Of a DNA stretch of 64,000 nt, positions 26,152 to 62,550 are shown in pieces. The position numbers were made by a program, and so were the translations under genes. Under the pieces are notes generated by a model. That model was given only the letters and a program-made list of their open reading frames with translations. It was not told where the DNA came from and made no database searches. The stretch comes from Paraspadella gotoi (taxonomy: Eukaryota > Animalia > Chaetognatha): contig CM119267.1 of the NCBI GenBank assembly GCA_051294375.1, positions 7,606,683 to 7,670,682 on the forward strand. Direction: 5' to 3'. Positions within the stretch are counted from its first letter, which is position 1, and each line of letters begins with the position of its first letter.

Positions 26152-26254
26152 GTTTTTTTACTTTCGTTTTCTTCCTTCTGTAAAGAAAATAACGATGTGT
26201 ATTGGCAGAAATTTGTTTAAAAATTAATCTCGAAACAACCAAGTACAAAAGGCT

Positions 26255-27733
26255 TCATTCGAACGAAATTTCAACCTTAATTAACTTGACTGGTTTTTTA
26301 CGAACCACATACAAACGATGTACGCCCAATAACAAAGCCGTCAAAGTCAAGACCACCCCTACTGCAAGAAACATGGCCTCGAAGGCATGAACGAGACGAA
26401 TCTGTCCTAGAGGTTTACCCATCAGCTCGGATATACTTATGGCGTCCAAGACAGCGAACTGCTCCAACCAAAAAATGGGAAAAACTATGGAATCGGGAAA
26501 ACCTTCGTAGAAATCGTCGTAAACCGGGACTCTTTTTACGTAAGTATTGATCTGTAGACGTCCAGCGCCTTTAACGGCGGCACCCGTGAAAGGTTCCACG
26601 TTGACGAAGGTGGAGTGATCGATAGGATCCGGACTCAATCCTTTAAAAGCTTTAACGTAGACTTTGTCCGCGTTAAGAAAATGAGGCTGGGAAACGAAAA
26701 ACGGCGCTCCTTTTGAACAGCGGCTGATGTTGAGAACCCCAGATGGAAGGCACGGTGACGATATTGGCGAGCAGAAGCAGGCGTTCTCGGATGAGTTGGC
26801 AAAGACGTTATCGTCTAATTCAAACCGGTAAGTGTCTAAGCCGAGTAGCTCTTCTTCGCCGACGAACACCGACTTGATGGAGCGGCACATGTTGGGGACG
26901 AAGGTATATTGGGGTTTTTCCTTACCCAGAAAAGGTTGAAAGGCCGTGCCATCGGTGCCGCGAATTCGGTTGCAGTCTTTACCAGGCCACACGCTCAACT
27001 TCTGGTCGCCGTTCCAAGAGGCGACCTTCAAGAACCGCGAGAGGTCACCGTCTTGTCCAGTGTAGACGTCGAGCCTTCCTTGGTCCGACCAGTTCCTACC
27101 AAGATGCCATCCAAACTTGGCGGAAGAAACTGCGTTGTGGACGATGTATTTGAGATCGTGCAAGAGAGGATCTTCATAGCCCCATAGGAGCTCTTTCACG
27201 GTCGGCCTTACAAAAAACGAGGAGCCCGTCTGAGCAATAAGAGATCGAAGCAGGACTCTAGTGACAAACGAAATGTCGCGCGTATTCTCTAGCACCAGCA
27301 GCAACGGGACGTTGAGCACGCGAATTCGGTCCGTTTCGGGACCCACGCTGGCCGCTTCATCAAAAGAGTAACGCGACACCTCTCGATAAGAGACGATTTG
27401 GCCATCGTCCGAAAAACGTACGTCGACCTTCTGGCGATGCTCCAAGTAGACGTAGGGACCGGACTCCAAGAGCTCCGGCGCCTCGCCGTACTTGAGCACT
27501 TCTAAAGGATTGACAACGTGGAAGAAATAAAAGCTATTCTTGACGGGAACGGGAATGTTCTTCCACAGCCGAAATGACGGAGAGGAGGAGGAATTGCGAA
27601 GAGGAATGAGCACCTGGGCCTCTCGACGAATCAGCGCATCGAAGTAAAAAAGGAAACTGACGGAGAATGACAAAACGGCGACCCCGAGCAGTGAAGTGAC
27701 CGCCAACTGACCGACGGAACAAGGCCGAGACAT
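26255..27733 (-). CDS. CD36/scavenger receptor class B (LIMP-2/SR-BI-like), single exon
   Basis: About 490-aa ORF with N- and C-terminal TM segments, YFFHVVNP, GPYVY, LLWGYEDP, IRGTDGT, Cys cluster, SQPHFLNAD, VEPFTG. The first in-frame ATG is at 27733. Confidence 0.93.
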   Translation of the reverse strand: MSRPCSVGQLAVTSLLGVAVLSFSVSFLFYFDALIRREAQVLIPLRNSSSSPSFRLWKNIPVPVKNSFYFFHVVNPLEVLKYGEAPELLESGPYVYLEHRQKVDVRFSDDGQIVSYREVSRYSFDEAASVGPETDRIRVLNVPLLLVLENTRDISFVTRVLLRSLIAQTGSSFFVRPTVKELLWGYEDPLLHDLKYIVHNAVSSAKFGWHLGRNWSDQGRLDVYTGQDGDLSRFLKVASWNGDQKLSVWPGKDCNRIRGTDGTAFQPFLGKEKPQYTFVPNMCRSIKSVFVGEEELLGLDTYRFELDDNVFANSSENACFCSPISSPCLPSGVLNISRCSKGAPFFVSQPHFLNADKVYVKAFKGLSPDPIDHSTFVNVEPFTGAAVKGAGRLQINTYVKRVPVYDDFYEGFPDSIVFPIFWLEQFAVLDAISISELMGKPLGQIRLVHAFEAMFLAVGVVLTLTALLLGVHRLYVVRKKPVKLIKVEISFE

Positions 27734-27889
27734 GGGGAAAGGATCCTTCAACCTTGGCACATTTTAAACTTTGGTAAATAAGGGAACCATAAAAGATTTG
27801 CAATGTCTACTACTTTGGTTTATAATGATTACACAAACATTTATAAAATAAATCACTGATTGCATAGAAGTTTTTTTACGACTTAGGCA

Positions 27890-28642
27890 TCATCGCTTCT
27901 CATCTCGTCGCCTAATATCGAAGGGTGGTGGCATTTCCAGTGGTGGCAAATCAAAGTTGAATCTTAAGCTTCCGTCGGTGGGCGAGAGTAACGCGACGTT
28001 GTCGCCGACGGCATTATCCAGCGAAGACGGGTTCCGCGATTTCGTCATCTCGCAGAGACTTGCTTCCAACATCGAGTTCTTTCGTTTGGTCTCGTCCAGT
28101 TCGCTGAGGAGACTTGCGATGTGACTCCGCAAGTCGAAGTTGTGCAACCGCAGTTCCTCGATGACATCCGCGTCGGTTTTCGGGCCTTTCCAGGCGCAAG
28201 ATGTGGCGACCTTGGCGGAATTATCGCCGCGCCCGCAGGATCGATAGTTTAATTCCTGCAGGACGACGCAGGATCGAATTAAAGATTCCTGCACCGATTC
28301 TTCTGGGGGCGAGGAGTGTATCGGTGTCGCCGCGGCGGCAGAGTTCCCTAATTTATCTTGATACTGCAACTTGCCTTGTTCCAACTGCTTTTCGCGAACC
28401 GATCGGAGATAAATAAAACGTTCTTTTTTGGCAATTAACTGTTCGATGCCTTTTTCTTGCGCACGACGCTGTAAGTCTATCGACTCCAGAATGGAAGGAC
28501 TCAATAAGGGCGTCGATCTGGCTTTGGCGAGCGAATCCATCGCCGCCGAACGACAAGAAATTGCGGCGTCGAAATCTCCACGTCGGGCAAACCGATCTGA
28601 GTTTCGCTCGTACAAGTGTGCATCGTTCATGTAGGATGACAT
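27890..28642 (-). CDS. NRBF2: Nuclear receptor-binding factor 2 (MIT-like N-terminus, coiled coil), single exon
   Basis: NDAHLYERNSDRFARRGDFDAAISCR, KGPKTDADVIEELRLHN, C-terminal DLPPLEMPPPFD. Confidence 0.82.
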   Translation of the reverse strand: MSSYMNDAHLYERNSDRFARRGDFDAAISCRSAAMDSLAKARSTPLLSPSILESIDLQRRAQEKGIEQLIAKKERFIYLRSVREKQLEQGKLQYQDKLGNSAAAATPIHSSPPEESVQESLIRSCVVLQELNYRSCGRGDNSAKVATSCAWKGPKTDADVIEELRLHNFDLRSHIASLLSELDETKRKNSMLEASLCEMTKSRNPSSLDNAVGDNVALLSPTDGSLRFNFDLPPLEMPPPFDIRRRDEKR

Positions 28643-29074
28643 TCTAATTTGTTAGAAATAATATTTTCATGAAATACTATTTGGAAAATTCGATGATCGT
28701 GATCATGCATGATCCGTGAAAAAATTATGCAAATACATTGCAAACTACTACTTAAGATATAACAGAAGATTTAATCAATAAAAATAACTGCTGCGAAACC
28801 TTTCACAAACGTAACAATGTGTAATCTGATACCAATTAATACATATTTGGTTCACGACATTTTTCTTTCGTCAGAATTCAATGGAGTTTTGGGAAATTCA
28901 ATAGAGTTTTTGTTGCACTATTCACACAGCAAAACCAGCAGCTGTGAACTTAATGTGGATTCAGAATCAACTCACGTAAAATTGTACAAATGCAAATGTA
29001 CCGATACACCATTGACCAACAAGATAAAACTTTAGGAATGACTAGAAGTTTCAAATAAATAAAAATACAATCAA

Positions 29075-31395
29075 TTAGGAAACTTCGCCAACTATTGGAA
29101 CATATCCTTCATGACTTCTTTGGCGTTCGAAACGATTGTGTCGTGATTCAACCACCGCGAAGCTGACCGCGCCCATGACTCCCACGATGGCCAAGATGAG
29201 CAGTTGGTACGGAAGAGACAAGTAGTCGCTGCCAATAAAAAGTTTTTAATCCTCATAAATAAGTAGGCAAAACAAGCCTAGGATGTCATTTACGAAAACA
29301 TTAAAAGCAGCTGCCTGTTAAGCGCCGAGCGCTGCATGAATTGGTACACGATAATATTCACCCGAGCCTCTTCCGGTCCCATTTTCCAATCTCCTTATCA
29401 TAAATAAACAGTGGTTAAAATCTACCAAGACCCCACCTGTAAAAGAACGCGATGGCGGCAGCGACTGATTGACTGAACTTATAGAGCGCAAAAGCAGAGG
29501 CGCTCTCCTCCTGGTACATGTTACTAAGAATAGAGTAGCATTGCGTGTTGAAAGAGGCGTCGGCCAGACCGAGCATGGCGCCGATTCCGACTGCTAGGTA
29601 TTTATTGGGCGTCCAGTACGTGGCGGCTTCGGAACCATTGATGGCGGGAAAGGACATAAATATGAGGTAAAAGGCTGTCAAGTGGACGAAGAGGCCGAAG
29701 ACAACGACTTTGTTGCGACCGATGCGTGAAGTGATTTTCTAAGAATAAACGGAGTTCTCGTGCTTTGAAAAAGAAAAAAGAATATCACTATCGACATTCT
29801 ATCTCACCTTTCCCAGAAAACCAAAAATGCCACCACCGAGAATCTCTCCGATTCCCGTGAATATCCCGACCAAACCGATGAGGCGTTTGGCTTCGGCGCC
29901 GAATTGCTTTGTGCTGCTGACGGTCGTCGGATAAACCCCACTCCAAAAAGTTAGCTCCAAACCTTAAAAAAGGTAAAATAACATGAAGCGCTAAGCGGAA
30001 AAAACGCGGAAAAAGAAAGCAAATCGACAAACCGGTGTAAAAAAAGCATACGCTTAACAGGATCATATCCAAGGTTATGAACATCCTTCCGGATTGCTTA
30101 ATGGTGTCGATAGCCTCCTGCCAATGCGACCGCGTGCCGTCGGCCTGGATGACTCCATCGCCAGGTTCAGGAAGAACGCCGCGTCGCGGTTCAACGCGTA
30201 ACAGGAGCAAAACAAGCACGCCGAGAAAATTAGCGGCCGATAATCCAATGAATAATATTGTTCTAGAGCAGGGAAGTGATTGATAAGGTTATCTGAGTAA
30301 AAATAACTAGAAGAATAACCCAAGATGAAAACCTGTGATCTGCGTCTATTTCTATTTCTCCTTTAAACTCGAAATAGACGAAAGGATTTCCGAAGAGCAA
30401 GCTACACTGAAGTAGTCCCCAAAATATTCCCGCGTTCCGGCCAGCGGTGTCGCCGGGAGAATTTATCGTGAGGAAATTTCCTTGCGCTGGAAGGAAAGCA
30501 AAAATAATCTTTAAATCGCTGCAGAGCTTAATTCATTTTTAGACGAATCAGAAAAAGCAGCGATGGAAAAAAAGAGGGAGAGCGACATATAATTAAAAAA
30601 GAGAGAGCGACATAGATATAAATATATATATATATAAAGTTATAAACTGAACTCGTTTATATACATAAAAATTATATTGTAAATAAAACAAACAAATGAG
30701 TGGAGGAATATGAAACATGTGAATCTAAAAGATCTTGCTGATTAGAGCTATATCTAAATTTTTAGCTTTTTATGGTTACACACTTAAACTATTTTCAATA
30801 TTAAAACAGCGTGACAATGACAACGACAACGACGACTATGGTCAAAAGAAGCAGAAACGAATAAACATCTCGCCCAAGTCGGGCAATCGCCCGTCTGGCG
30901 AGATAAAAAGAAACTTGGACGACGTATGTAAGATATAAGAGAATACAACGATTAAGTTTATTCGATCTCACCCGTCCAGATGACCGGCGCTGCTAGCCCG
31001 ACGATGACAGAACCAAGGTACAACGCCCACGTCATGGGCTTCAGAAAGCTGATGACGAAGAGAAAGTAGCCCAGGCCGGCAGAGAACATGGACCACTTGG
31101 GTCCAAACAGGGCGACCACGGGAGGAGCGAACCAGTTGAATACCGCAAAAACGATGTAAATGATAGCGAGGGAGGTGAACCCATCGCCATTGAAGGATTT
31201 ATCTTGTTTTTTAGCATCTTTAAGAACCGCCTTTTCAACCATAGAACAAGTTTGAAAGGCGCCGAAAATTAGCATAAATGCGACGCCGACCAAAATTACA
31301 TTTAGGAGGGGGTTGATAGGTCGCCTTCTCCATAATGCGAAGCGACTCCAAATGGTTGGTTGTGACGTCTCCCCGGGGGAACTGGATGACGGCAT
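29075..31395 (-). CDS. MFSD11: UNC93-like MFS membrane protein
   Basis: NVILVGVAFMLIFGAFQTCSMVE, GDGFTSLAIIYIVFAVFNWFAPPVV, LGLADASFNTQ, SAFALYKFSQSVAAAIAFFYS. Confidence 0.92.
30800..30909 (-). mobile_element. Helentron/HINE-like 5' end fragment in an MFSD11 intron
   Basis: Minus strand: ttttt-ATCTCGCCAGACGGGC-gatt-GCCCGACTTGGGCGAGAT hairpin followed by a (gtcgtt)n microsatellite. About 65 bp is homologous to 38910-38978. Confidence 0.55.
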
Positions 31396-31586
31396 TTTTT
31401 GGGGTTTTTTTGTTTCCTGCTCTTCGATTATTTTTCAGTTGTTAGATTCACATATAATTGGTTTTCTGGAGTTAATTTCAATAAATAGTTTATTGGAATA
31501 AATTGTACAGATCAAATTTAATTAAAAAATAGATATAGCAAACACAGAAAAAAGGGTTTAAAGATGTTGATCACAGACGAAGATAT

Positions 31587-33069
31587 TTAAAGGTGAGCCG
31601 GAGAGACGACGACGACTTCCGGCCGCGGGCAAAAGTCGGGAGAAGGCGGGCAAACCTCCGGCACAACCTCCCACGACACAACAGGCTCCACGATCTCGAC
31701 CTCACTAACGGCCCTATCTAACGGGAAGCGGCGATATCCAACGGCGTGACGGTGACCACGTCGGTCGAATAACTCGTAGACTAGGCCCGCGTCGTCATGG
31801 TCCAATGACGACGTGAAGTCGTTGACCGTCGTGAACCTGAGGCCGGGGGCGCCGGTAAAATGATTGTTGGTCGCGTTGTCCAGAATTCGTCGGGAGTTAT
31901 AGATGGCAATTTCTTTCGAACTACAGACTACGACGTCTTGCTCGAGCCTCTCTACGGCGTTGTCCTTATGGCGAATGAGAAGCCAAGCTTGAGAGCTCTG
32001 AGCCTCTGGAGAAGTCGGCATTCTGGATTCGCTCGTGCTAGGACTTATCTTTACAGGAGCGTCTATTAAGTAAGCAGCAGAGAAAAACGAAACGGAAAAG
32101 TATAACGCTCACTATTTAACTAATGGAGATATTGCTGAAGTATCCAAAGTATCGAACAGTTTTAATCTGAGATGTACGTATATTTTTTGTTTCCCCGTTG
32201 AAATCTCTAAACCCTTACGCTCACTCTAACCTTTCTTCGTGGTTTTCCTGTTTCTCGTCCGTCTTCTCATGTCCTTGTCCAAAGGAACCTTTTGGAACTG
32301 CACAGAGAGGAGGGCGTCGCCGCACTCGGCTTCAAACAAACATCCAAACTTCTCGTCGCCAGTCTACGCATCGAATCGCCAGTTAAAACAACCGAAATAA
32401 CTCTCCAGAAGCATCAAAGTTTCCATTTGATGATTAAAAAGAAATCAAAGTTAAATATCCTTTCCTCGCCCCCGTCTGAAGTGCCAAAACTAATTCCCTT
32501 ACCATCTCGGAATTATCCAAGACCTTTTCGGGTATGGGAATTCCTTGAAGCGCCAATTCTTCAACGAGGACCCTCATCGCTTCCAAAGCGTTGTCGAGAA
32601 GGCGCCTTCTCGACGAGTAGACGCCGACCAAGCGCGTCGCTTCGCTCCTCGAAAACGTCGTCGTGGTAGAGAGGAGAAAAACGATCGGAGTGTTTTTGAA
32701 CATGTTTCGTCGCTTCGCCGGTCGCGGGGTCTTTTTCGATTTGGGTTCCTTGGACTTCTTAGAGGATTTGGCAACTGGATCGTGGACTGTATCGGTTTCA
32801 AGGGCGGACCCGAGAACGTCCGTTTTCACGTCGGCACAATCCACCGGATTATTAGCGGGATCATCTATAGTGACGGCATTGGTGTCCGTATCAAAGACAG
32901 ATGACAAAATTTTTTTAGCAGGGGATCGGGGGACTCTTGATAGCTTTCCTTTCCTTCTTTTTTCGCAATTTGAATGGCACGGCACCGCCTTCGATAGGGG
33001 TTGTCGCTTTGATGTCGAAGCACTGGTTTTTTTCACACCGCGTCGGAACTTCTTCGATTCAGTCTTCAT
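31587..33069 (-). CDS. Uncharacterised 3-exon protein (basic low-complexity N-terminus, two similar internal segments)
   Basis: ORFs 32434-33069 and 31587-32021 join through a middle exon at about 32210-32365 (TGDEKFGCLFEAECGDALLSVQFQKVP) with phase-compatible GT-AG introns. Composition is exon-like. Confidence 0.7.
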
Positions 33070-33211
33070 CGCTAGAGAATTTAACTAGCTATCTGGAACG
33101 AGTTAACTACTATTTTACTCTAATTTGGGGGTTTATATTTCTGGTATTTTTTTTTGGTTTTTTTTTATTTATTTATTTTTTTTTTAATTAAAACGTAAAA
33201 AATTTTAAAAA

Positions 33212-34037
33212 ATGACGTCCGGCAGAAAAATAAAAACATGGACCTACGACAACGGAGGTAAAGAACACAAATTTAAAAACAAAACCTGTCCGAGTCGGAG
33301 TGTACATAATACCTTATTTAAACATTAAAAAAAAAGAGTGCCCAAGAGCGGAAATCTAACGAGAGTTAATCTTTCTCAATCGGAACGGTTTAGAATACAC
33401 TGGCGAGGTGGAGCACGGAAAGCGTCACGGACAAGGGACTTACAAGTGGACCACGGGGGAAAAGTTTAACGGCGCCTGGTTTACGGGACTGAGGGAAGGA
33501 AAAGGATTTCTGAAATACGCCAAAGGCACTAAACACGAAGGATTTTGGAAGGACGACGAGCCGTGGGTTGGGGTTGATTGTGTTAATTATCAATAATTTC
33601 AGCCCTGGTCGAGATGTTTTCTCAAAATTTATAGGGGAGAGGAATTGTGACTTGGGATCATGGAATACGATTCAAAGGAATTTTTCAAGGTCATACAGTC
33701 AATCTAAAGTATAACTAAAATGTTTAAGAAAATAAAAGGCCTGAAAGAAATATCTTGGGCCAACGCAGGATGGGCCTACGCGAAAGGTGAACTCACGGTC
33801 ATCAAAGACAACACAGTCCTATGGGCCGAATTAATCGACGACAAATGGGAACTCAAGGTCATAGAATTCTTTTATTGTTAAATTCCAGTTATATAAGAGC
33901 CTATAAACTATATGTTTACGTATGCTCAGATTCCGAACTCTATCCTAAAACGAAGCGAATACACGCTGTGGCACATTCCGGCAAACATCCACGAACGAGC
34001 GCTGTGGAGAGAAAGGGAGGCGAAAAAATCGTGGTAA
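33212..34037 (+). CDS. Small MORN-repeat protein, about 5 exons; the only plus-strand gene recognised
   Basis: MTSGRKIKTWTYDNG|EYTGEVEHGKRHGQGTYKWTTGEKFNGAWFTGLREGKGFLKYAKGTKHEGFWKDDEPW|GRGIVTWDHGIRFKGIFQ matches MORN Y-x-G-x-W-x-x-G-x-x-H-G-x-G repeats. The 3' exons are less certain. Confidence 0.78.
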
Positions 34038-34133
34038 AGATTGATTTAAGTTCAGCTACCGGAAATAGATTGTAATGTGAAGTCAAATAGAAAAATTCAA
34101 ATTTTGAAGACGACAACAAAATATAAAACTCCT

Positions 34134-34647
34134 TCACCGCTTTAACACAGATGAAGAAGTAGATTTGGCTATGCACTGATGTACGATGCTGTACATAAGC
34201 GGAATGGGTCTGTTCGAGTCGGGCACCTTCCAGGCTGAACTGGGAGTCTCTTCTAAGTTAAGTTCTTTGGTAAGGAATTCTCGGTCCAAAGGTTCTAGCG
34301 GTTGGCCGGCTTCGTGAAGCAGAGCCGAGCACGAATGATTGTAACCGTTGAATTCCAAATACTCCCTGGAAAAAATAAGGAAAGCTTAGTTGCGATAAGA
34401 ATGGTTCACAAAATTATGGGTGTCGCGGTTTGAACGATGCAATGACTAGCCTGATAAGTTCGTTAATGAGCAAATTTTCGTTGCTTAGAAACGGCTTTGC
34501 TATGCCATCTCCGGTAGGACCGTCCGAGTCCCGCGAATCGTTCAGCACTTTAAAAACTTCGGCTCTCATGTCGTCGCGCAACTTTTGCAGAGCGCCACTC
34601 TTTTCCAACGTCAGTTTTAATGAAGCCTTTACTTCTCGTTCGGCCAT
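34134..34647 (-). CDS. CEP20: LisH-domain centrosomal protein FOPNL/FOR20
   Basis: MAEREVKASLKLTLEKSGALQKLRDDMRAEVFKVL...PFLSNENLLINELIR|EYLEFNGYNHSCSALLHEAGQPLEPLDREFL...IPLMYSIV. Confidence 0.9.
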
Positions 34648-34750
34648 TTTAATTTTCTTCTTTCGCAACTATTTTGAGATTGAAAGAATTTCCAATAACG
34701 TAATTCTTTAATTTCAGTACTTAAGGGAGGGCAGAAAAAGGAAAGAAAGG

Positions 34751-36641
34751 TTAAACGGCCGTCGATCCTTCGCTGTCGCCATCGCTGCCGCTGCTCCCGC
34801 CGCTAGCGCAATAACTGCCGCTTTTATATTCAACCGTTCTTTCCGTCGCCGACGCCAGTGTTAGCGGAGTTTCTGAGAAAAGGGCTTGAAGGTTTTTAAA
34901 GTGACGAAAGGCCAACTGCAATGATCTGTTGCTCTCCAGGATGGCGTTCACGTCATCACGAAGTTGAGAATTAGAAGAGTCTACGGATGCATTTGGCTTT
35001 TTGACAGGCGTCGATTCGGCGACGGGCTTCAACGCTTCTATTTTCGGAGGCTCCGTCGAGAAGGTTCGTTCCAACGTTTCTTCGAGAGCTCTCTCCAAAT
35101 CTGGGACTTCTTTTCCACTCTCGCCGCGGGTCGACGTCGCTTTCTCGATCCTCCGACTCTCCTCGTCGCTTTGCAGAACTTCGATCTCGACGTCCTCCAA
35201 AGCGACGTGCGCTTGTGCAACGAAGAGCATGTTCTTCAGCTTCTCAACCGGGCGCTTATCTGGATCGTGTCTCACGGCTATTCTTCGTTCCCACGATCGA
35301 TCGCCGTCGAGCTGAGTCTGAAGAGTGGATTCCGCGTTTTCATCGCGTTTATCGTCGTCCGAATCAGGATCCTGAATCCATGTCTTCGATCGTTCTAATT
35401 CTCTATCGTGAAGACCATCTCTGCTGCCGATGAAAGTCTTTCGTCCGTATGCGGATTTCGAGAGCAAAACGTCGGTGGCAGTTTCGACGGAACCAACTTC
35501 GATGCGAGCAGAAGGGTCCTCGGAACGTTTCTCGGAAACTCGATTGGATTTTGGCGCGGGAATGCTGCCACCGCGTTTAATTTGGCCCGATTTACTAAAC
35601 GCCCTATCAGCAGCTCGACCTCCAACGTCAAATATTATCGCCTCTTTGCCTTTCGAATCGCGAGTGCGTCGATTTTGGGGAAACGTTTTTTTCTTCGTCG
35701 GCGTCGCTTTAGCTCGGAGGAATCGGTCGTGTCTGAGCTTTAACCTTTGCAGTCGCAAATCCTGCTGGCGAAAAAGGTGTTCCAGCCGGTCGTGATATGA
35801 GACGTCAGCCTGCGAGTCGCTTGGCGTTTTTACCGCGTCTACGCCATTGTCAGTCAAAATGGCGGAATCTTGAGAGGAAAGAGTTTCGATCCAAGAGGGA
35901 ATTCGCATCGTTGCTCCTTTTTCGTTCTTTACGGCGTCGATCCAACTGGGATGCTTAATTTTTTGACTGGATACTAATTGAGTTCGGATGGTGCTGATTG
36001 GCGCACCCTCTTTCGTCGTCGTACCTGTCGCGACGTCAGATAGGCCTGAGATGGCCTCCAACCAAGATGGCGCGCCTTTTGATACACTGAGATGATCGGC
36101 GTCGTCTATCCAAGACGGAGATCTTGGTTTGCTTTTCGGCGCCGTCTCCGTCGTGCCAACGAGAAGTTTTTTTTCTTGGTCATAGTGACTTCTTATGCTC
36201 GCCACAGCCTTGTCCTCTTGAGCGTTGATCTTAAGTTCGTCAACGCAGTCGATTAGATGTTGATAAAAGTCTTTTCTCGAGTCAAAAGGGAGAGACGGTT
36301 CATCTGCTTGATCCAGTCTCATCCGACGTAAAGAATCGTCCAAATCTAAAAATTTACACATTTCGTCTTACAAAGGAGATTCAAATTTTTGCCCTCTCGG
36401 TTGTCAATGAAACCTTAACATTAAAAATTCATAACTTACTACAATCCTTATCCCTCGTCTTGTCTTTTTTCAGCTTTTCTTTCTTCGATTTCCGCGCAGA
36501 AGGTAAGTTTTGATAATCGGTAATTTCCGAATTAGTTCTTTCAAAGTCACTTATGTATTCTTCTAAAGTTTCCGACGCAGTCTTTTTCGAAGGTTCAAAA
36601 CAATATAACGAAGAAAGCGTCACTTGAACCCCTTTGTCCAT
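34751..36641 (-). CDS. Uncharacterised ~600-aa protein with repeated PSWI/L motifs and coiled coils (2 exons)
   Basis: ORF 36429-36641 splices in frame to the 536-aa ORF 34751-36361. It contains four P-S-W-[IL]-[DE] motifs. Confidence 0.75.
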
Positions 36642-36842
36642 GGTTGTGAAACTAGAAACTTAAATGGAAGTTTGGCCACGATATATTTTATAAAACCCAT
36701 GTCAAAAACTTTAATTTTAAAAATCTTAATACGTTAACTTTTCGAGAAATAGGAAAACAATAGAAAAAAAAAGAGATGACGACGCGCCGTGTGGAACTCG
36801 CGCGATTATTCGTTTCGATCGCGACCCGAGGGCGCCCAGTCT

Positions 36843-37719
36843 TTACATTTCGCTTCTCTGCTCCTTCAGCTTCTGTCGTTTCAACTTCTTCGTCGACTGC
36901 TTCTTTTTCTTCGGCTCTTCGTCGCCGGATCCCTTAACAACGACGTCGTCCTTCTCCGTCATGATCACCTGAAGGGAAATGGGCGCTTTAACATTAGATA
37001 CTTTTAGCTTGATTGCTTTCAACAACAAAATAAATATTTTTGGGTTTTAATAAAGTTTATTAAAATTATTCTTTGGAAAGAAAACCAAATTATATTACTA
37101 AAAGTAAGCAATCGGTATTCCATATCGATATTACCTCGATATGACACGGCGAAGACATGTAGGCGTTGATTCTACCGTGAGCTCTGTACGTACGACGCCT
37201 CATTTGAGCCGCGCGATTGACTTGAATGTGAGTGATCACCTGAAATTAATTTTATACTGTTAGCAGCAATGAAAACAAGTGAAAAAGGGTGCTTATTTAT
37301 GTGCCATACCATGTGATCGACGTCAAGTCCCTTATAATCGGCGTTGGATTCGGCGTTTTTGAGGAGCGAGAGCAAAAACTCGGCAGACTTCTTGGGCCAC
37401 CGCCCCTGGCTTCCAGAAGCGTTCCAGGATTTGGCCTGGGCGTGGCGTCCGGGACCTCCGACGTAACGGCGGAAGGGAACAATTTCCTTTTTTTCGATGA
37501 CGTTCTTGAGAAAGCGGGTCGCTCTGAAACGCGTGAAATAAGATTTAATTCGAAATTAATATTGAAATTAGACGAGTGAAGGAATAGAAACCTTCTCAAT
37601 GGCATCCCGCGGATGGCTCCGGCGGTTTCGCGCGTATTCTTGTAATGAACGCGAAGATTGGCGCCCCTCGCCTTGACCGACTTAGACGGGTTTTCCGGCT
37701 CGCTCGCGTAACGCGTCAT
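36843..37719 (-). CDS. RPL17: 60S ribosomal protein L17 (uL22)
   Basis: [73 protein letters not shown]-terminal [15 protein letters not shown]. Confidence 0.97.
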
Positions 37720-37873
37720 CTCTAATTATCTCAGAAAACTAAAAATAACGATGCGAATAACAACTTCAATTGCCGAAAAGCAAATTAATAATAGTAAAAA
37801 TAATATCACGAAAAGAAACCAATGAAAATATATAAGGAAAAGTTCCCAATGCTTCAAAGGTTGATGGGAGGTA

Positions 37874-39260: not shown

Positions 39261-39458
39261 TTTTAACAAAAAAATATAAACTGTTACGAATCTGAAAATT
39301 ATAAAACAATTAGGAAAGCTCGAAACGGATCTAAAAACTTTTAACGTTTAAATTTCTGAATCGAAAATAAAACTTGTAATTTATTAATGACAGAAGCGTC
39401 TCTATTATCAACGACTTTCTTTCTCGAGCTCTTCATGCGTCGGTGACGCAGGCTCCCT

Positions 39459-41397: not shown

Positions 41398-41497
41398 TTA
41401 TACAGTATACTGTACAATATACAGTTTATACACTATATATACACAATATACACTATACATACACTACACATTATACACTATATTATACACTATATAC
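41398..41497. repeat. Degenerate (TATACAC)n microsatellite
   Basis: tatacactatatatacacaatatacactatacatacactacacattatacactatattatacactata. Confidence 0.7.
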
Positions 41498-50439: not shown

Positions 50440-50642
50440 CGCCGACGATATCACTTTACTTTGAAGACTTGTTTCTACACTTTGGACCGTTTCTTCCAGG
50501 CTTCTTTTTCATATTAAGTTTATTTTCTCATAACAGCTTGGTAATTCAATTATCATTACTGATGATGGTTTACGTGGGACATGGGAAATACGTGTATTAT
50601 GAATTCAATGTATCTACCTTAAAATAAAAATATTTAAACATG

Positions 50643-51596
50643 TCATTTGGGAAAGAACGGCGCATGACCCAAAGACTTGGGATCAAATTTTGAGAAATCG
50701 TAAAAACCAAGACAGTCGTAGTTTTTGTCGAAGACGAGCTCGAAGGAACCGCCATTGGAAGAGGATGCGGAAACATCCGCCTTGACAAAAGAGAGGACTT
50801 CGTCGTCATCCGTGAGGACGTGGCAAATGTCGTTGTTGAGTCCATCGGACGCCGAGCGAGAGAATGCGGGAAGCGTCGAATTATATTCTTTGGCTTCCTG
50901 TTCGGTGACGAGACGTTCCGCGCGGTCACTTATAATCAGAGCCCACTGCATATAGGCAGTCGTCAGGACATCCCCGAGAGTACTCCAAACCAATTTGCAT
51001 CGCGGAATATTCAGCTTGATCAATTGGAACAGTTTGTATCCAGACATCCTTCGAAGTTCGGCAACCTGCATTACTTGAAACATCTCCTCCACCAACCTGC
51101 TCATCAACGTATCGTTGAGTTCAGTCGGTGAAATTTTAGCCGCCGTCTCCAAATTTTGGAGCCGGGCTGTTTCGCCGATGGACTGGCCCACCGGTTGCGA
51201 GGATTCCGCCCGAACTGTCGCCTCCCGCTCCCGCGACTTAGCCGTCCACTCATCTTTTAGCCAACGGGGTAATTGACGCCAGGCTCGGCTGAGGGTCGCA
51301 AAGTCCGTTGGGAAGGAAGGGTGCAGAATCTTGAGGCAACTGACCCAGAGATCGTAGGAAGTAACGGGGCCTTTGGTCATTAAAAGTTTAGGGTCGACGG
51401 TCGAGGGAGACATATCGACTCTGATCCGCTTCCCCGCGGGTTCGTCGACGGAAACTTCCACTTTCAGTGGACGTTTGGTAGCGGAAGAAGTCGTCGGGAC
51501 TTCAGTAGACTTGCTAGAGCCCGATTGGTCCACATCGTCCGACGCGTCAGCGTCTATCTTCACCGATGCCAAGGCGATAATATCAGAGTTGCTCAT
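50643..51596 (-). CDS. Uncharacterised single-exon protein with divergent HMG-box-like segment(s)
   Basis: About 317-aa ORF with exon-like composition. KGPVTSYDLWV...LSRAWRQLPRWLKDEWTAKS and RRMSGYKLF...VWSTLGDVLTTAY resemble the HMG helix 1/helix 3 patterns. Confidence 0.65.
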   Translation of the reverse strand: MSNSDIIALASVKIDADASDDVDQSGSSKSTEVPTTSSATKRPLKVEVSVDEPAGKRIRVDMSPSTVDPKLLMTKGPVTSYDLWVSCLKILHPSFPTDFATLSRAWRQLPRWLKDEWTAKSREREATVRAESSQPVGQSIGETARLQNLETAAKISPTELNDTLMSRLVEEMFQVMQVAELRRMSGYKLFQLIKLNIPRCKLVWSTLGDVLTTAYMQWALIISDRAERLVTEQEAKEYNSTLPAFSRSASDGLNNDICHVLTDDDEVLSFVKADVSASSSNGGSFELVFDKNYDCLGFYDFSKFDPKSLGHAPFFPK

Positions 51597-51770
51597 CTTT
51601 CGTTTTCGCAAATTTGATCAACTGTATATTTTAAAAAAATTAAAAAAATATAAAATACATGGAGGGGGGGGACTAGAACAGTGTTTTTCAGATCTTTGTT
51701 TACCATAACAAAGTCAAGACTTAACAAGCGGATGGATGAGAACTCGGTTGAAAAATAAAAGAAGAAAGTT

Positions 51771-52181
51771 TCACAACCATTGAGAAAACGCGTAGACCAG
51801 GAAAAATACGAAAACGCCGAAGCCGACGACGTAACACATTAGGTTTTTGTGTCCTCGTTGAGTCATGCTCGTTAGTCTGGACACGGTGGACTGCAAGAGG
51901 CCTCCGGAAGAATCGAAATCGTCGTCGACGTTGCCGAGCAAGAGATTCTGCGAGTCCGTCTCGCGACCAATGTCGAGGGACAGGGATTTCAGCATGCGAA
52001 CCTAACAACGAGACGAAGAACAAGAATTAACCTTCGCGCATCGAAAGGAAAGGAAGAAAGTGATTACTTTGGAGGTGAGTCCCTCGGCCAACTTGTCGTT
52101 CTCTTGTTCCATCATCTGGTGCATGGCGTGACTGGCGTGTCCTTCGTTATTCAGGTGACGGTACGAATAAGGGCTCGACAT
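51771..52181 (-). CDS. BET1: BET1 Qc-SNARE
   Basis: MMEQENDKLAEGLTSKV|RMLKSLSLDIGRET...LLQSTVSRL followed by a C-terminal TM. Confidence 0.9.
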
Positions 52182-52505
52182 TCTGTTTACAAAGTTTTTT
52201 TCTGTCATTAAATCTGACAAAGTCACGTAATTAAAAACCGTGATTTTTTTTTTACTTTTTCTTAAAATTGTACATAGACAGAAGACACCATAAACCGAAA
52301 AAAACTTTTTTGGCTACTTAAGAAAATTTCTCAAATCATACGTATATAAAAAAGTTCCTGTGGGGCAGAGGGAACGTCATCCAGACAATAAACCATCAGC
52401 CAGAAAAAAAATTTAAGCATGAAAAAAGTCACCCAAAAGTATGATAAATAAAAAAAACGAACAAACTATGGCGAGCCAAAAAACTCAATGATTTAAAATA
52501 AAATA

Positions 52506-52706
52506 CCAAGTGATCCGCGGGAACTAATACGAATAAAATTTCAATAATTATTAAAATATTTAAAAATTTAAAAATAATATAATTAAATAATCTTTAAATT
52601 TTTCAAATATATTTATTTATATAATATACATTTATATAAAAGAATATAAAATTAAAAATATTTTTAAATAATTTTTTAAAGTTTTAGTACCAATGGATCA
52701 CCATGT
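52506..52706. mobile_element. Decayed Tc1/mariner-type MITE
   Basis: Left tac-caagtgatccgcgggaactaatac and right gttttagtaccaatggatcaccatg-ta form an imperfect TIR around an AT-rich core, with TA flanks. Confidence 0.45.
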
Positions 52707-53196
52707 AGGTTTAATAAGTTACAGCGATGATTATTTTGAATAAGAAACGGCAATATGGCGCCAAATTTGGTCTAGATGTACGAAAAAATTGTCGCTGGAA
52801 CACGTTATCAAGTAGGTTCCAAAAATAAGAAGATAGCGACAAGAGTTTTATAATTTTCAGTATGATACATACAAATGTATTTATTTAAACCAATATATTC
52901 TCCACTGGAAAAAGATCTTCAGGGGTAAAAAGCCGTCAATGCAAAACTGTGAAAAAAGCAGTGTATTTACTGATTCACTTTACAAAATATCGAAACAGCA
53001 CATTGTTGAAATCAAACACAAAAGCATTTTAGGTGTGATCGCCACAACATTTTATGCTATAGCATCTCGAGCCTAAACCCTCTGGGTGCCCAGCTGTAAA
53101 CCGGTTTAAAATTGTTCTACGTTGTTTAAATATCGCGGAGAGTGTTAGTCTCAGACTTGGTTTTTTAATCGCGTCGAATTTCATGAAGACGACGCC

Positions 53197-56364
<3,168 letters not shown>

Positions 56365-56472
56365 TTTCTTTTAATATCTGGTCTATTGTATTAGATTGAA
56401 TTTAACAATGGAATCTGTTCAAATGAAAAGGCAATGAGCGGACAAGAATGCGATTCAACAAAAAAAACTGCT

Positions 56473-57794
56473 TTAGAATATTGTTCCACGAGTGATTAGA
56501 GTCTTCTTGCACAGATACAGTTCATCAATCTCTTTTATAGTCTCATTAATCAATTTCTCGACTGAGGGGATTGCGTTGCAGACACCCTTCCGAACGCAGA
56601 CGCAACCTACTTCATCATTATACAACACACTCTTGGTCGGAGAGAAAGTTTCGTTCGGTCCCAAAACTACTACGACGACGACATAGCGGCGAGGTAACCG
56701 TCCGCGCCCAATGTTTTTGAGACATTCAGTGTCGCACCAGCACAACTGCGACGAGCGAAACAAGTGTGGTCGAGTAAAATCAACAATGCAATCATCATAC
56801 TCGACATCGTCTTCATCGCGAACGCGCAAAAACTCGATCCGATAACGATGACGCGGCACCGACGGACGATATCGATTAGTCAACAGATCGTCCAGATTCT
56901 TTGCAACGTGCTCCTTTTGGTCGGCAGTAAGAAATAGGCCCTTAATTTCTCGATTTTCCGCAACACCCATGTAGACTTTTCCACAACCTTTAAAAAGAAT
57001 CTTAAACTAAAAACGAACGGCAAAATAGACGCGCCACGAATCGATAAACCGGGCAAACCTTGTTTTGAATTCAAAAACGCGTTGATGTCCATTGAGACGG
57101 GAAAACGGAGTTTGGGCGCGAAAATCATGGAATCTTCTCGGTCAATTTCTGACATCGGCAGAGTCGGGTATTCGTCATAAGCCAAAGTCCGATGCGACTT
57201 GATCGCCACAAACTGACCCTCGCTCCACGGGCAAGGCGTGTCTTTCAAAAGACCATTCGATTCCTTTGAGAGCTCAAGGCTCGATGCATCGGGGAAATCG
57301 TTGACGGCCGAATCGAGTGCCAGTGCTGCCTCACTTTTAGGCGACTTGAAGACGTGAACAGGATCCTGCGCGTCGCGAATATCTTTAGGAAGAATGTATT
57401 CTGGAGAACTCTGAGATGGAAAAGGAAACGGTGAGAGCTGTTCCAGAACAGATTCTAAGCGTCCGGCCCTCAACGAATATTTGGGTCTTTCTTCGATATG
57501 ACGTCTCGAACTCTTCCTTCTTTGCCCACGACAATATTCATTCCTCACATATTTTTTATCAGATGGTTTGCTAAGGTTTTTTCCCCTGGGCAAGTCTAAA
57601 ACAGTCGGAGTTCCCGATTTAGCCGCTTGTCGAGCTACACAGCGCGGTAGAAAAGTTAATACTGGTTTCTTTCTCGGGAAAAGATAGTGTTGTGGTACGG
57701 TATCAGTCTTTTCGTAAATGCCCCCAGGACAATACCGAGCGTCAATGCTGGCAAAATGGGCCCCGTCCGCGAAAGAGCGGGGCATCACGTCCAT
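56473..57794 (-). CDS. Schlafen AlbA_2-domain protein (SLFNL1-like), 2 exons
   Basis: EGQFVAIKS...DINAFLNSKQG|GKVYMGVAENREIKGL...YRIEFLRV...RYVVVVVV...LYNDEVGCVCVRKG matches the AlbA_2 pattern (AFLN-x-x-GG-x-hhhGV-x-D/E). Confidence 0.75.
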
Positions 57795-58153
57795 AGAGTG
57801 ACAACTCTGAGGTAAATTCTTATATGTTAACTGGACATTTCAAAACAAAACAAAACTTTCGATAAAAACTAGAAAAAAATGTTCACTCAAAATTTTAATG
57901 AGAATTCGTAAAATTTGTAAAACAATTTGTAAACGCCATGATTTGTAACCTCTTTAAGCAACAGAAACAGAACTTCTAATCGAAAAGTTTATTTCGACCA
58001 CTGCTTCAGGAATGGACATGAATTTTATTTGGCACGGGCGACTTAAAAAAAAAAGGATAAAGTTAGTAAAAAAATAGTGTTTCTCGACCCCCTCTAATTC
58101 CGCCATGTCTCCGATTAACATTCCTGGCCTCCTAAAACATTCGAAAAATTCCT

Positions 58154-59890
58154 TTAACAGGGATTCGCTGGAAGCAGCTTGCCGACGCAAGTGCCGAACC
58201 CGACGCGGTAGCCGTCTCCCTCGCAAAAACCAGATAAGACCACCTCGTCGCCGTCGACCAGAAATTTGCGTTTGACGTCGTCCGCCAACGCGACTTCCCG
58301 ACTCCCCTTCCAGGATAGCTCCAGCATGGATCCGAGGGAATCGGCCGTCGGACCGGAGATGGTTCCAGAGCCCATGAGGTCGCCGGGTTTTATATTACAA
58401 CCAGTAGCGGTGTGGTGAACGAGTTGTTGTTTCATCGTCCAGTACATGTACTTGAAGTTGGAGCGGCAAACTGCGATTTGGCAACAAGAAGAACATTTCA
58501 ATATTTAATAGTATTTCTGATCTATTATCCTTTCATTAAAGATTGTTTAAAAGGGATCACTGACCCGTGGCGGCCTCTTTCTTGCCATCAGGCTTGATGG
58601 CAACCTCGAGATTGATATCGAAGTTGTAGTCGTCTTCGTGCTTCAGGTACGGCAACAGTTCTACGTCCTGGAGCATGTTCGACGTTATGAATGGCGCCAG
58701 CGCCTCCATAGTGACCACCCAAGGGGATATAGTGGTTCCGAGGTTCTTGCCGCAGAAGGGACCCAACGGTACGTATTCCCACTTTTGAATATCGCGCGCG
58801 CTCCAGTCGTTCATCAGCACCATGCCGAAGATGTGATCGGCGGCCTTTTTCATTGAAATAGGCTCGCCCAAATTGGTGCCTGGTCCAGTAAAAAACGCCA
58901 TTTCTAGTTCAAAGTCCATGAGTCTGGGAGAAACAAGAAAACGATTAAATTTAAACCCTGAAGCCGGAAAACAATTTCATACATGACTAATAGGAATAAA
59001 ATAAGGAACAATACAAGTTTTATGAAATTTAAACATAAGATGTTACGGTTGTACCAGTGTACCAATGTACCTGCAGGGTCCAAATTTAGGCGGGACGTCG
59101 TCCGAAGGCCTGGTCTGTCCGTTTGGTCGCCTGATAGGCGTTCCACTAACGACGACTGAAGAGGACCGTCCGTGGTATCCGACGGGAAGGTGCTTCCAGT
59201 TTGGCATCAATGCATTGTCCTTGCCTCGAAACATGATGCCGACGTTTGTGGCGTGGTGGATAGAAGAGTAAAAATCAGTGTAATCGCCTGAAAAATTTCA
59301 GAAATCGTTTTTTTTTCAAATATCAAACTGTTATTTCGAAATGGATAATTTATATATTGGTTGTACCAATTTCATATATATAATATATAATATTAAATAC
59401 GTAAAGAGGAAAGACGAGAATAAGATGAAAACGGAAAAAAATATAACCTATAGTGGCCGGAAGATGCATGGTACACGTAAGCCGAGGCACGACTGCCTTT
59501 GATTTAAGATCCCCGTTGTCACGAAGGGTCGGCGTGTCAGCGGCCAAAAGTAGCTGCAACGTCTCCCGAGCTTCGCGCCAAGCGTCTTTGCCCAGACCCA
59601 TGAACTCGTTGAGAGTTTCTCTCTCAAAAACGTGGCGCTTATTCGAAAGAATCGGACCTGAATAAAAATAAAAGTAACAAAAAATATTAAAAGTTCAATT
59701 TCACAATTTTAGACACCGAAATAAATCTTGACCTACCTTGAAAAAGGTGAGAGATCTTCGAAAGATCCAGTACAGAGTCACCGATGGCGACACCGATTCG
59801 ACGGCGAGGTTCATCAGGAGTCGAAAAAACTCCGTACGGCAAATTCTGGACGGGAAAGTCCGAATCAGGCGCCACGGGAACCCAAGACAT
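58154..59890 (-). CDS. FAH: Fumarylacetoacetase
   Basis: [80 protein letters not shown]. Confidence 0.98.
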
Positions 59891-60128
59891 TTCGACGTAA
59901 TAAGAGGAAACGACTATAAAAAAAGGTGAATAGTGTAACAAAAAGTTTTAAAATGTTTGTTTACCCAACAAATATAATAAAAGTCTATGAAATAATTACA
60001 AAAATACAGTATATGACCCAGCAACAAGTAACGGATTTTAATTCATCGGAATATAACTAAAAATTGCAATCACCTTAAATCACACAAATTTTGACTAGAC
60101 AATAGAGTACTGATGTGTCTACTGTCTA

Positions 60129-61002
60129 CAGTGCGGCGCAAAAAAAAAGTAGCCACTTCTATCACAGCGAAAAAACTATATTGAATGGATAAATTTTACA
60201 AATATATAAAAATATAAAACAAAGCTTATTGAAAGATAAAGTGATTGGTCCAACTCCAAGTCCCATTAAAATCGATCAAAGCGTCCGAAAGTCAAAAACG
60301 ATTAGTACAAAACATCTGACGAGAATAAATTTATTTTAATAAAAAAAAATATATAACTTTTTATCTTAATATATTTATAATATAAAATTAACTGAGCAAA
60401 TTCAACATCAAATATCTGTAAAGATAAGTATCAACCATTTTTAACCTAAATCAAATTAAAATAAATAAGAAAATTTTATAGAAAAACGATCTTTAAAAAA
60501 AAAACAAAAAAAAAAAAACAAGTTGAGTAATAAATTACCCTAAGTTACTTTTAAAACTTTTTCATATCTAAGTTTTTTCCTTATGGCATCTTTTGTTAAA
60601 ACAAACTAATATAAACTCACAATTATATTAAAAATATTTTTTTTATTTTTATCATAAATTACTTTTTGATTTTAAAATAATTTTTTAAAAATTAATTATT
60701 TTCAATATTTATTATTAAAATGCTAAAACTATTTTTATAGAAAAGTAATACAAATTTATTACCAACCCTTTTATATGCTTAATTCTATTATGATTTTATT
60801 AATTTTATATTATAAATCAGTCAGAAAAAAAAGCGTCATCAATAATAACTTTTAGAAGTCTTGCTATATTCTTTTGCCTGAACATTCAAATTTTGTTTAC
60901 ACCAATCGAAAAGAGCTATACTTTTTATATATTTTCTTAAAATTAAAAAATAAATAATGATGTATTTAAAGCTACCTAGTGACTACTTTTTGCGCCGCAG
61001 TG
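60129..61002. mobile_element. Tc1/mariner-type non-autonomous element (MITE), about 874 bp
   Basis: TA|CAGTGCGGCGCAAAAAAAAAGTAGCCACT ... AGTGACTACTTTTTGCGCCGCAGTG|TA: terminal inverted repeats with TA target duplication and an AT-rich non-coding interior. Confidence 0.85.
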
Positions 61003-61420
61003 TACATACGATGAATCAATACATCTCTATTTGTTTTCAGATACAGGAAAAAAGTATATAGAAAATTTAAGTTCAATGAATCGATACTAGGTCACTTAAA
61101 CTTTAAAGGAACAACTGCCAATAATATATTTCCAGCAAATTTCCTTTTTCTCTCGATATGAGTCTGATTGAATCATTCAAGATTAGTCAAAATTTACTAA
61201 CTATTGATACTTTTTTCTGACAGCCTATACTTTTTCAACAGCCGTAAAATAATGTAAAGGTTAAGCGTAATTTGCACCATAAAAGATGAATTGTATTTCC
61301 ACCAGAGTAAAATAATTAATTGGAAAGAGCATAGGATTAAGCTGTTGGACGAAGACGCCTATAGCGAAATCATTTTCGACTAGTTTGAGATTTTTTTTTT
61401 TTTTTTGCATAGCGTCATTC

Positions 61421-62167
61421 TTAAAAATGACTCCAAGCGGTCGGAACCGCCGTCGTTAGCGAGGAAGATTTCGTCTTCGTCTTAGCGCAAGACACATATT
61501 GATACGACTCTAGCACTGCCGTGCTGTTGCTGTCTTGGCTGGAGGTGATACAGGTGGCTTGAAATCGCATAAGAGACGTGTGCACCCAAGCCCGAGCGTC
61601 CTGACAGTAGTTGACCATGAAGGAAAGGTCTTCCTTGTAGGTCAAGGGTATTGTCTGACGAATAATAAAGGGACTCCTCATCGGGACAACGACGTGAGTG
61701 GCGTTTTTTATGTCCGCCAAAAGAGAACCGAGACTGACTTGGACGCTGAAGCTAACCAAAGTGATTGAGTAATAGTTAGGGTTGTAGAGTCGCCACCGGT
61801 TCTCGAAGACGAAGTCAACCCGCTCCTTGGAGGCGTTGATGTTCACGCGAAAGGGCTCGATGGTACGAGGTACGGTGGGATCGAGCCCGAGTTCCGGCGA
61901 ACGAGGGTAGATGAAGAAGGTGACGAGGAAGGTGAGGACGAACACGGCGACAATGGTCACCATAACGTGCAGGGTAGTCCGTTTGGGTTTAAGACGTTCG
62001 TCGGAGAAGGGGACAAGGGAAATCAATTGTTCTTTTTCCCGGTTGACGTGGCCTCTGCCGCGACACGTGGGGCAGTCGACGTAGACCGTTTCTTCGTTTT
62101 CCTCGGGATACCGATCGAACTCGTGGTAGCTCCCGAGGCCCTCTAACTGATAGAGGCTGCTCCCCAT
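61421..62167 (-). CDS. TMEM106B: TMEM106 family type II membrane protein, single exon
   Basis: DCPTCRGRGHV...QLISLVPFSDERLKPKRTTLHV, TM, FFIYPRS, NPNYYSI, YQYVSC. Confidence 0.9.
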   Translation of the reverse strand: MGSSLYQLEGLGSYHEFDRYPEENEETVYVDCPTCRGRGHVNREKEQLISLVPFSDERLKPKRTTLHVMVTIVAVFVLTFLVTFFIYPRSPELGLDPTVPRTIEPFRVNINASKERVDFVFENRWRLYNPNYYSITLVSFSVQVSLGSLLADIKNATHVVVPMRSPFIIRQTIPLTYKEDLSFMVNYCQDARAWVHTSLMRFQATCITSSQDSNSTAVLESYQYVSCAKTKTKSSSLTTAVPTAWSHF

Positions 62168-62550
62168 CTTCGAAAACAAGAAATTGAAAAAAGATAAAAT
62201 TTGCGAGTTATAATATAGAATTTTTTTATTTTTTTTAACAAAGAATAGAAAAAATATTTCATAAATTGTAAGGGCACTTTTCTAAATAACGTTGAGTAAG
62301 GCAATAAGTAAGGCATTGTTCAATAAGGAATGACAATTACTAATGAGTAACGTGAAAAAAAAGTTGAATTGAGTATAGCGTAATAAACAGTTGGGTCAGT
62401 GTCGCATTGTCCATCTCCATTTTCATTGCTATGATATGTACATTGTACAATTGGCAAATGTTCTGTAGGTATAACTTATATGTGTAAAGTTCAGTTTATA
62501 CAGAAAGCATATTCAAAGTGCTCCGACTCGTTTGCGTTTTTGGCGATATT

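Follow-up and report, generated by a model that had tools for sequence, protein, structure and literature searches.

Candidate spliced-leader acceptor sites and putative operons in a gene-dense genomic region of very likely chaetognath origin

Gene Content and Organization of the Window

The 64-kb stretch of DNA analyzed here (the window) carries a dense array of genes, nearly all of them on the minus strand, and several of their start codons are closely preceded by sequences that resemble 3′ splice acceptors. The original prediction took these acceptor-like AGs for sites of spliced-leader (SL) addition, and we consider here both that reading and the arrangement of the genes in putative operons. 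Gene modeling yielded 25 genes on the minus strand, with 100 cis introns in total, and one gene on the plus strand, i.e., 26 genes per 64 kb. A distribution of 25 of 26 genes on one strand has a p value of 8e-7 under a coin-flip null, a null that is unchecked against any other genome. A MORN-repeat gene separates the minus-strand genes into a run of 16 and another of 9 (Table 1), and all other plus-strand open reading frames (ORFs) outside the minus-strand genes of the window are shorter than 100 codons. The MORN-repeat gene and orphan1 stand head to head (33069-33238), with 168 nucleotides (nt) between their ATGs and a TGACGT motif present; this gap is likely a bidirectional promoter. The 3′ part of the MORN gene converges on the 3′ end of FOPNL. 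Wrong introns in the automatic gene models were hand-corrected in eight genes, and the few uncertain donors are in the Schlafen-like gene and in intron 1 of PI4K2. Most gene names rest on Pfam matches or protein searches, and the names RPS3A, MAP4K, PI4K2, LAP, and FOPNL, like the orthologue-level labels, are our assumptions from the translations. 'HMG-like' and exon 1 of FOPNL had no Pfam match, and Schlafen-like had a weak one (E 0.089). The cis introns are short (minimum 61 nt, median 89 nt), 99 of the 100 have a GT donor, and the donors are well defined, with G at -1 in 91% and A at -2 in 73%.

The distance from stop codon to the next ATG was at most 250 nt in 10 of the 23 same-strand pairs and at most 450 nt in 15, while the other eight spacers measured 860-2520 nt. 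A general spacing of ~105 nt, as originally proposed, fits only three pairs (103, 103, and 108 nt). Joining neighbors at spacers of ≤450 nt gave chains of 2-5 genes each. In 10 of the 15 short spacers a poly(A) signal lies 63-133 nt before the next ATG, and at five junctions one lies 12-25 nt before the next YAG, a count made without a chance test. At FBXO3-DNAJC3 and RABL3-FBXO3, the signal is ~12-17 nt from the next candidate AG. By the definition applied to Paraspadella gotoi, in which at least two unrelated same-strand genes with gaps of <250 bp constitute an operon (PMC12460157), the 10 pairs at ≤250 nt would count even when measured from stop to ATG. The tight clusters (orphan1-AMT, RPS3A-FOPNL, BET1-DNAJC3, FAH-USP15, and REEP-TMEM106) are most likely operons.

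Acceptor-Like Sequences Upstream of Start Codons

All ten motifs quoted in the original prediction are present where it placed them, each occurring once on the minus strand. An acceptor matrix was built from the 100 modelled cis introns of the window, and a site was called cis-grade when its score reached the 25th percentile of true acceptors. Upstream counts were made on 24 genes, excluding REEP, whose ATG lies at the window edge. A cis-grade AG was found 0-30 nt before the ATG in 10 of the 24 genes, an enrichment of about 2-fold; the control frequencies were 40/214 for intron-interior windows (Fisher p 0.013), 82/413 for spacer windows (p 0.015), and 3/24 for antisense windows (p 0.024). Ten genes were reached by 34 of 1000 dinucleotide shuffles, and YAG trinucleotides within 30 nt of an ATG numbered 24 vs. 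14 expected (p about 0.01). The analysis used three window sizes (0-30, 0-60, and 0-100 nt), and the p values are uncorrected. Taken as a whole, the enrichment of acceptors before ATGs is real but modest.

Several of the named sites score poorly beside cis acceptors. The sites of AMT, FAH, RPS13, TATDN1, TMEM106, RPL17, and MGMT resemble ordinary acceptors, while those of NRBF2, both orphans, 'HMG-like', USP15, and FOPNL do not (USP15 and FOPNL fall in the 2nd and 5th percentile of cis acceptors, respectively). Either some of the low-scoring sites occur by chance, or trans-acceptors are A-richer than cis acceptors. The strict TTTTCAG acceptor, which is the nematode consensus, was not found among the acceptors of the window.

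The list of scored sites was hand-picked; donors were therefore searched for by their distance from the ATG, which avoids such bias. Were the AGs acceptors of ordinary cis introns in the 5′ untranslated region (UTR), joined to short non-coding first exons, a good donor would be expected at intron distance upstream. In four of the 24 genes (FAH, RABL3, PI4K2, and RPS13), the non-coding DNA 61-280 nt upstream holds a donor that reaches the 25th percentile, against 4.3 sites given by chance. The description of the acceptors as unpaired accordingly holds for 20 of 24 genes but not for these four, which may have ordinary 5′ UTR introns. Cis splicing is also favored by the RPS13 loci of other animals (L001, L002, L003, and L005), where inspection by eye showed a pyrimidine tract, a GT, and an acceptor immediately ahead of the ATG, and by an AAG|GT situated 32 nt behind the RABL3 stop, upstream of FBXO3. 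With a minimum intron of 61 nt, however, exon 1 and the promoter of AMT, USP15, and FOPNL would have to fit inside the end of the upstream gene, and donors do not exceed the chance number. As an explanation of the AGs in general, 5′ UTR introns are very improbable.

RNA Contigs over the FBXO3-TATDN1 Region

Contigs of run X1 were taken as RNA since they skip six modelled GT-AG introns and leave these introns empty. They were examined over 43001-52500 and cover three gene 5′ regions (FBXO3, TATDN1, and DNAJC3); the interval 48707-52500 (RABL3, 'HMG-like', and BET1) has next to no X1 cover and was not used as evidence. Over 53000-62500 the X1 word share was 0.82, where even sampling would give 0.70 for coding sequence plus short UTRs and 0.90 for all but introns, and we do not lean on this value. 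The FBXO3 contig starts at 48623, the A of 'tttttctAG|G', and there is no contig upstream of it. As a measure of the chance of a contig start there, AG occurs at 26 and YAG at 8 of the 444 positions of the RABL3-FBXO3 spacer. An assembly-graph break at which an AAG-ending leader converges with the genomic path would fit this start, which could also result from a variant base or from cover running out.

Elsewhere, the DNAJC3-TATDN1 spacer is covered almost throughout by X1 contigs, and the DNAJC3 and FBXO3 contigs meet in a T-run that is separated from the DNAJC3 AG only by AATAAA and 12 nt. The spacers are thus covered while the introns are empty, although a contig across genes does not by itself show one transcript and assembled contigs cannot show RNA ends. 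Contigs that run through candidate AGs fit a shared precursor whose leader junctions were pruned by the assembler, and they fit equally well the absence of leader addition at these sites.

Short upstream ORFs precede RABL3 (50440-50512, minus strand) and FBXO3 (48529-48615, minus strand), those of FBXO3 coming after the AG that has RNA support. Translation of FBXO3 may in truth begin at an in-frame ATG located 18 nt before the modelled one.

Phylogenetic Affinity of the Window

RPL17 exon 2 matched a tight group of environmental and run-assembly relatives at 90-94% identity. In a quick tree of 30 rows, the window RPL17, which is 95% identical to P0346, nested in this clade with a Shimodaira-Hasegawa-like approximate likelihood ratio test (SH-aLRT) value of 100. 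N-terminal extensions of >7 residues occur in two of 61 clade-type RPL17 proteins (P0349 and P0507), and both match published chaetognath leaders. P0349 begins MG-KLKFFYLLN, of which KLKFFYLLN agrees at 9/9 residues with the chaetognath SL1 frame (Table 3 of PMC2481426); P0507 begins MG-EAKNIYFTCLK and matches SL3.2 at 7/10 in register. In both proteins the leader peptide is followed by the same FKFSRLT stretch. In P0507, 7 codons (21 nt) separate the end of the leader peptide from the ATG, and the AG of the window RPL17 stands 19 nt before its ATG. No other of 523 proteins had a 5-mer of the SL1 frame or SL3.2 at its start, and one vertebrate USP4 had a chance SL2 5-mer. Because the window RPL17 nests with relatives bearing translated SL1 and SL3 leaders, the window very likely derives from an arrow worm (chaetognath) genome, as judged from sequence.

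Named relatives of USP15 reached 51-58% identity and three others 65-70%, and these three form a long-stemmed clade that attaches beside lophotrochozoans (quick tree, midpoint root). A metagenome scan with the RPS13 exon gave no close relative among the matches listed (best 89%) and no chaetognath leader word in its 80 loci, and four single-exon proteins of the window were absent from the protein collection. It could be supposed that the window belongs to a lineage without leader splicing and that the leader-bearing RPL17 relatives are chimeric plankton assemblies: the close relatives are all environmental predictions, and in P0349 an internal stretch is missing and the 4-5 residues that follow its SL1 match are unexplained. 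Two different chaetognath leader forms on one gene family, with the same stretch after each, and a strongly supported clade that is distinct from the named animals tested make such an origin extremely improbable. Sponge, nematode, tunicate, flatworm, and rotifer origins were dropped on the grounds that their named members were not at the top of the USP15, RPS13, or RPL17 searches, together with the leader match.

The RPL17 clade comprises two subgroups (P0340-P0350, P0507), in line with the duplicated ribosomal-protein genes reported for chaetognaths.

Trans-Splicing and Operons

Sequences resembling the chaetognath leaders are absent from the window DNA, where the best SL1 match had 11 mismatches and the best SL2.0 match 14, and a pattern search gave 0 matches. 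In agreement with the original prediction, no SL RNA gene was found in the window; five weak Rfam matches, none of them real, included no SL, 5S, or snRNA family. Very likely membership in a phylum that is known to trans-splice (the decisive evidence), sites that mostly lack a cis donor, and genes in long same-strand runs support the predicted leader addition as a mechanism acting in this region, if not at each AG that was named. We consider it likely that leader splicing and operons operate in this gene-dense region. The tightly packed housekeeping genes would be transcribed in groups, and each upstream message would be cut and polyadenylated near an AATAAA or ATTAAA about 60-130 nt before the next ATG. 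The spliceosome would then join a capped leader of 33-36 nt, encoded by a gene outside the window, to the unpaired AG downstream, a few to ~90 nt before the ATG. Genes at the head of a cluster, orphan1 among them, would have a short outron removed or escape trans-splicing.

Several observations weigh against leader addition at these sites. The enrichment of acceptors is only ~2-fold and is no longer significant in wider windows (93/1000 shuffles at 0-60 nt, 212/1000 at 0-100 nt), and six named sites lie at or below the 11th percentile of cis acceptors. The TATDN1 contig reads on for 517 nt past the candidate AG, and that of DNAJC3 likewise follows the genome through its own. The FBXO3 start is a single event, and a one-base contig break at 44182 shows that breaks have other causes. 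No leader was found on window RNA among the 6 loose contig ends listed, beyond which there are 13 loose ends and 48 pieces. The published leaders in the table end in AAA, and one ending in AG is our supposition; a G-ending chaetognath leader was not found in the literature searched. The leader-bearing P0349 and P0507 are environmental predictions from a sister RPL17 subgroup and not from the window's species. Finally, the protein searches for relatives matched no named chaetognath sequence, and none of 150 proteins related to TMEM106 carried a leader peptide.

Some of these features would also be expected if the animal trans-splices but most of its genes have promoters of their own, the AGs arising partly by chance in AT-rich 5′ regions and the packing reflecting compaction more than shared transcripts. 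Background windows reach the threshold in 19-20% of cases, so chance alone would supply ~5 of the 10 scoring sites, and X1 contigs run through two candidate AGs. Orphan1, at its head-to-head promoter, cannot be a downstream operon gene, the spacers of eight pairs are long, and 82% of genes are non-operonic in the P. gotoi data available (PMC12460157). This account is nevertheless unlikely, given the same-strand runs of 16 and 9 genes, the spacers of 103-108 nt, and the poly(A) signals that stand just before the next YAG at five junctions (again without a chance test). Confidence in leader splicing and operons is greater for the region than for single sites because six of the named AGs score low and no leader was seen joined to window RNA at the loose ends listed; for any one low-scoring AG, the chances of its being a real trans-splice site are about even.

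Comparison with Known Systems

For arrow worms, publications on leader trans-splicing date back to 2008, and operons are likewise known in the phylum; the window is very likely a further case of this chaetognath system. In Spadella, four leader forms are described and the trans-spliced set includes ribosomal proteins, and in the RPS14-PCNA operon of Spadella cephaloptera three bases separate the poly(A) site from the acceptor (PMC2481426). Chaetognath leader genes occur within 5S clusters (PMC2566580). For P. gotoi, PMC12460157 gives 10,197 of 21,072 genes as trans-spliced, 18% in operons, a longest operon of nine genes, and no operon-specific leader. Like published chaetognath operons, the window has housekeeping and ribosomal-protein genes packed on one strand, no leader gene near the targets, and at two junctions, a poly(A) signal-to-AG distance (~12-17 nt) akin to the published 3-base gap that precedes the acceptor (PMC2481426). 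It differs in that leader use at its genes is inferred, in its density of 26 genes per 64 kb vs. about 22,000 in the 257 Mb of the whole P. gotoi genome, and in its same-strand run of 16 genes vs. a longest operon of nine (PMC12460157), although the chains at ≤450 nt are no longer than five genes. If the species is P. gotoi, the gene cluster may already be annotated in the operon table of that study; six window gene names had no match in its readable PDF supplements, which do not cover the operon spreadsheet.

The operons of tunicates (Ciona and Oikopleura) share short intercistronic distances and the resolution of tightly packed genes by a leader that is not operon-specific, whereas the phylum and leader are different; their median gaps of 1 and ~31 nt are distances between gene models, a different measure from the stop-to-ATG distances of 103-444 nt in the window (PMC7986045). 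The SL2 operons of Caenorhabditis elegans resemble the window in their ~100-nt intercistronic regions and in an acceptor just before the ATG (PMC7986045). They differ in their acceptor, the strict form of which is missing here, and in that chaetognaths have no operon-specific leader.

If leader splicing and operons are confirmed here, the window would provide four operon candidates of five or three genes and ~20 candidate leader-addition sites for a phylum in which one genome-scale trans-splicing study was found in the literature searched, and it would illustrate that raw DNA can be enough to raise the suspicion of leader splicing. Greater weight would attach to it if chaetognath trans-acceptors follow an A-richer consensus than cis acceptors, at which the low-scoring sites hint, or if the 16-gene run were one transcription unit. 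That this 30-kb run, from REEP to FOPNL, forms one or two polycistronic units, beyond the published nine-gene maximum for chaetognaths, is improbable. We are just as skeptical of its corollary, in which directional housekeeping blocks would approach those of trypanosomes and poly(A) cutting and leader addition would be coupled within ~10-25 nt at several junctions.

Table 1. Genes, candidate acceptors, and candidate operons of the window.
Feature	Position	Strand	Remarks
16 co-oriented genes	34134..64000	-	Uninterrupted; open-frame gene models, Pfam for most, six introns matched by RNA contig joints
16-gene run, first half		-	REEP, TMEM106, FAH, Schlafen-like, USP15, BET1, orphan ('HMG-like'), RABL3
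16-gene run, second half		-	FBXO3, DNAJC3, TATDN1, RPS3A, MGMT, RPL17, orphan2, FOPNL-like
9 co-oriented genes	197..33069	-	orphan1, MFSD11/UNC-93, NRBF2, CD36, AMT, MAP4K, PI4K2, LRR-PDZ (LAP), RPS13; gene models, Pfam
MORN-repeat gene	33238..33593	+	Sole plus-strand gene found; Pfam MORN E 8.7e-10; 3′ end not fixed
RPL17 gene	36843..37719	-	Taxonomic marker, very likely placing the window among chaetognaths
RPS13 acceptor-like site	647..658	-	AG 22 nt before ATG; score 5.89; good donor 185 nt upstream; resembles pyrimidine-tract (TOP) start
AMT candidate acceptor	26178..26192	-	AG 26 nt before ATG, 76 nt after CD36 stop; 99th percentile; no usable donor
NRBF2 candidate acceptor	28644..28661	-	AG 1 nt before ATG; branch-point-like CTAAC; 3rd percentile
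orphan1 candidate acceptor	33072..33082	-	AG 2 nt before ATG, head-to-head promoter; 5th percentile; better AG at 33093
orphan2 candidate acceptor	36652..36662	-	AG 10 nt before ATG; 7th percentile
RPL17 candidate acceptor	37739..37750	-	AG 19 nt before ATG; 53rd percentile
MGMT candidate acceptor	39292..39305	-	AG 31 nt before ATG; 69th percentile
TATDN1 candidate acceptor	43664..43675	-	AG 16 nt before ATG; 58th percentile; RNA contig runs through
FBXO3 poly(A) signal AATAAA, then DNAJC3 candidate AG 12 nt on	46601..46618	-	RNA contig genomic across AG
FBXO3 AG	48622..48623	-	93 nt upstream of modelled ATG; sole RNA-supported site; 5th percentile; absent from the original prediction
'HMG-like' orphan candidate acceptor	51622..51638	-	AG 25 nt before ATG; 11th percentile
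Schlafen-like candidate acceptor	57807..57818	-	AG 12 nt before ATG; 29th percentile
FAH acceptor-like site	59914..59926	-	AG 23 nt before ATG; 87th percentile; good donor 160 nt upstream; may be a cis 5′ UTR intron acceptor
TMEM106 candidate acceptor	62168..62182	-	AG 0 nt before ATG; 51st percentile
Candidate operon orphan1-MFSD11-NRBF2-CD36-AMT	24181..33069	-	Spacers 191, 432, 156, 103 nt; putative shared transcript
Candidate operon RPS3A-MGMT-RPL17-orphan2-FOPNL	34134..40627	-	Spacers 198, 154, 201, 103 nt; putative shared transcript
Candidate operon BET1-'HMG-like'-RABL3-FBXO3-DNAJC3	44824..52181	-	Spacers 174, 203, 444, 269 nt; perhaps extends to TATDN1
Candidate operon FAH-Schlafen-like-USP15	53197..59890	-	Spacers 359, 108 nt; putative shared transcript
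Candidate pair REEP-TMEM106	61421..64000	-	Spacer 383 nt

Other Features of the Window

Three orphan genes of 317-598 codons (31587-33069, 34751-36641, and 50643-51596, minus strand) are embedded in the housekeeping clusters, with no Pfam match on the exons tested. TMEM106 (61421-62167, minus strand) is intronless, while its DNA-predicted close relatives break off at common places as if intron-bearing, which hints at intron loss in the window's lineage. The FOPNL-like gene has a GC-AG intron (34366-34450, minus strand), the sole non-GT donor among the 100 modelled introns. A possible small AT-rich gene lies between LAP and RPS13 (1800-1875, minus strand), with an AG 3 nt before its ATG and a good donor after 28 codons; it is outside the gene counts. 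Some 700 nt upstream of MAP4K, a GC-rich island (22360-22593, minus strand) without a convincing ORF is possibly a promoter or a non-coding first exon.

Repeats and hairpins occur in several introns. A 776-nt intron of the LRR-PDZ gene contains a near-perfect 61-nt hairpin (6736-6796), whose microRNA-type Rfam match is below threshold (33 vs. 88 bits); it may have a role in editing or splicing, or represent an unknown microRNA. A 254-nt direct repeat, 92% identical, is found in one LRR-PDZ gene intron (10461-10714 and 10915-11168), and minisatellite arrays with 22-nt and ~19-nt units occupy 38544-38934 in the 817-nt MGMT intron. Introns of MFSD11 and MGMT share, near their 5′ ends, a 39-nt element that is 85% identical (30871-30909 and 38939-38977) and possibly represents a small mobile element.

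Two RPS13-related contigs from outside the window (L007 and L008) carry the end of another gene ~100 nt upstream of RPS13. We take this gene to be RPL22-like, and the pair is likely a copepod operon. Three RPS13 mRNAs (L006, L009, and L011) carry at their 5′ ends the calanoid copepod leader given in PMC4664967.

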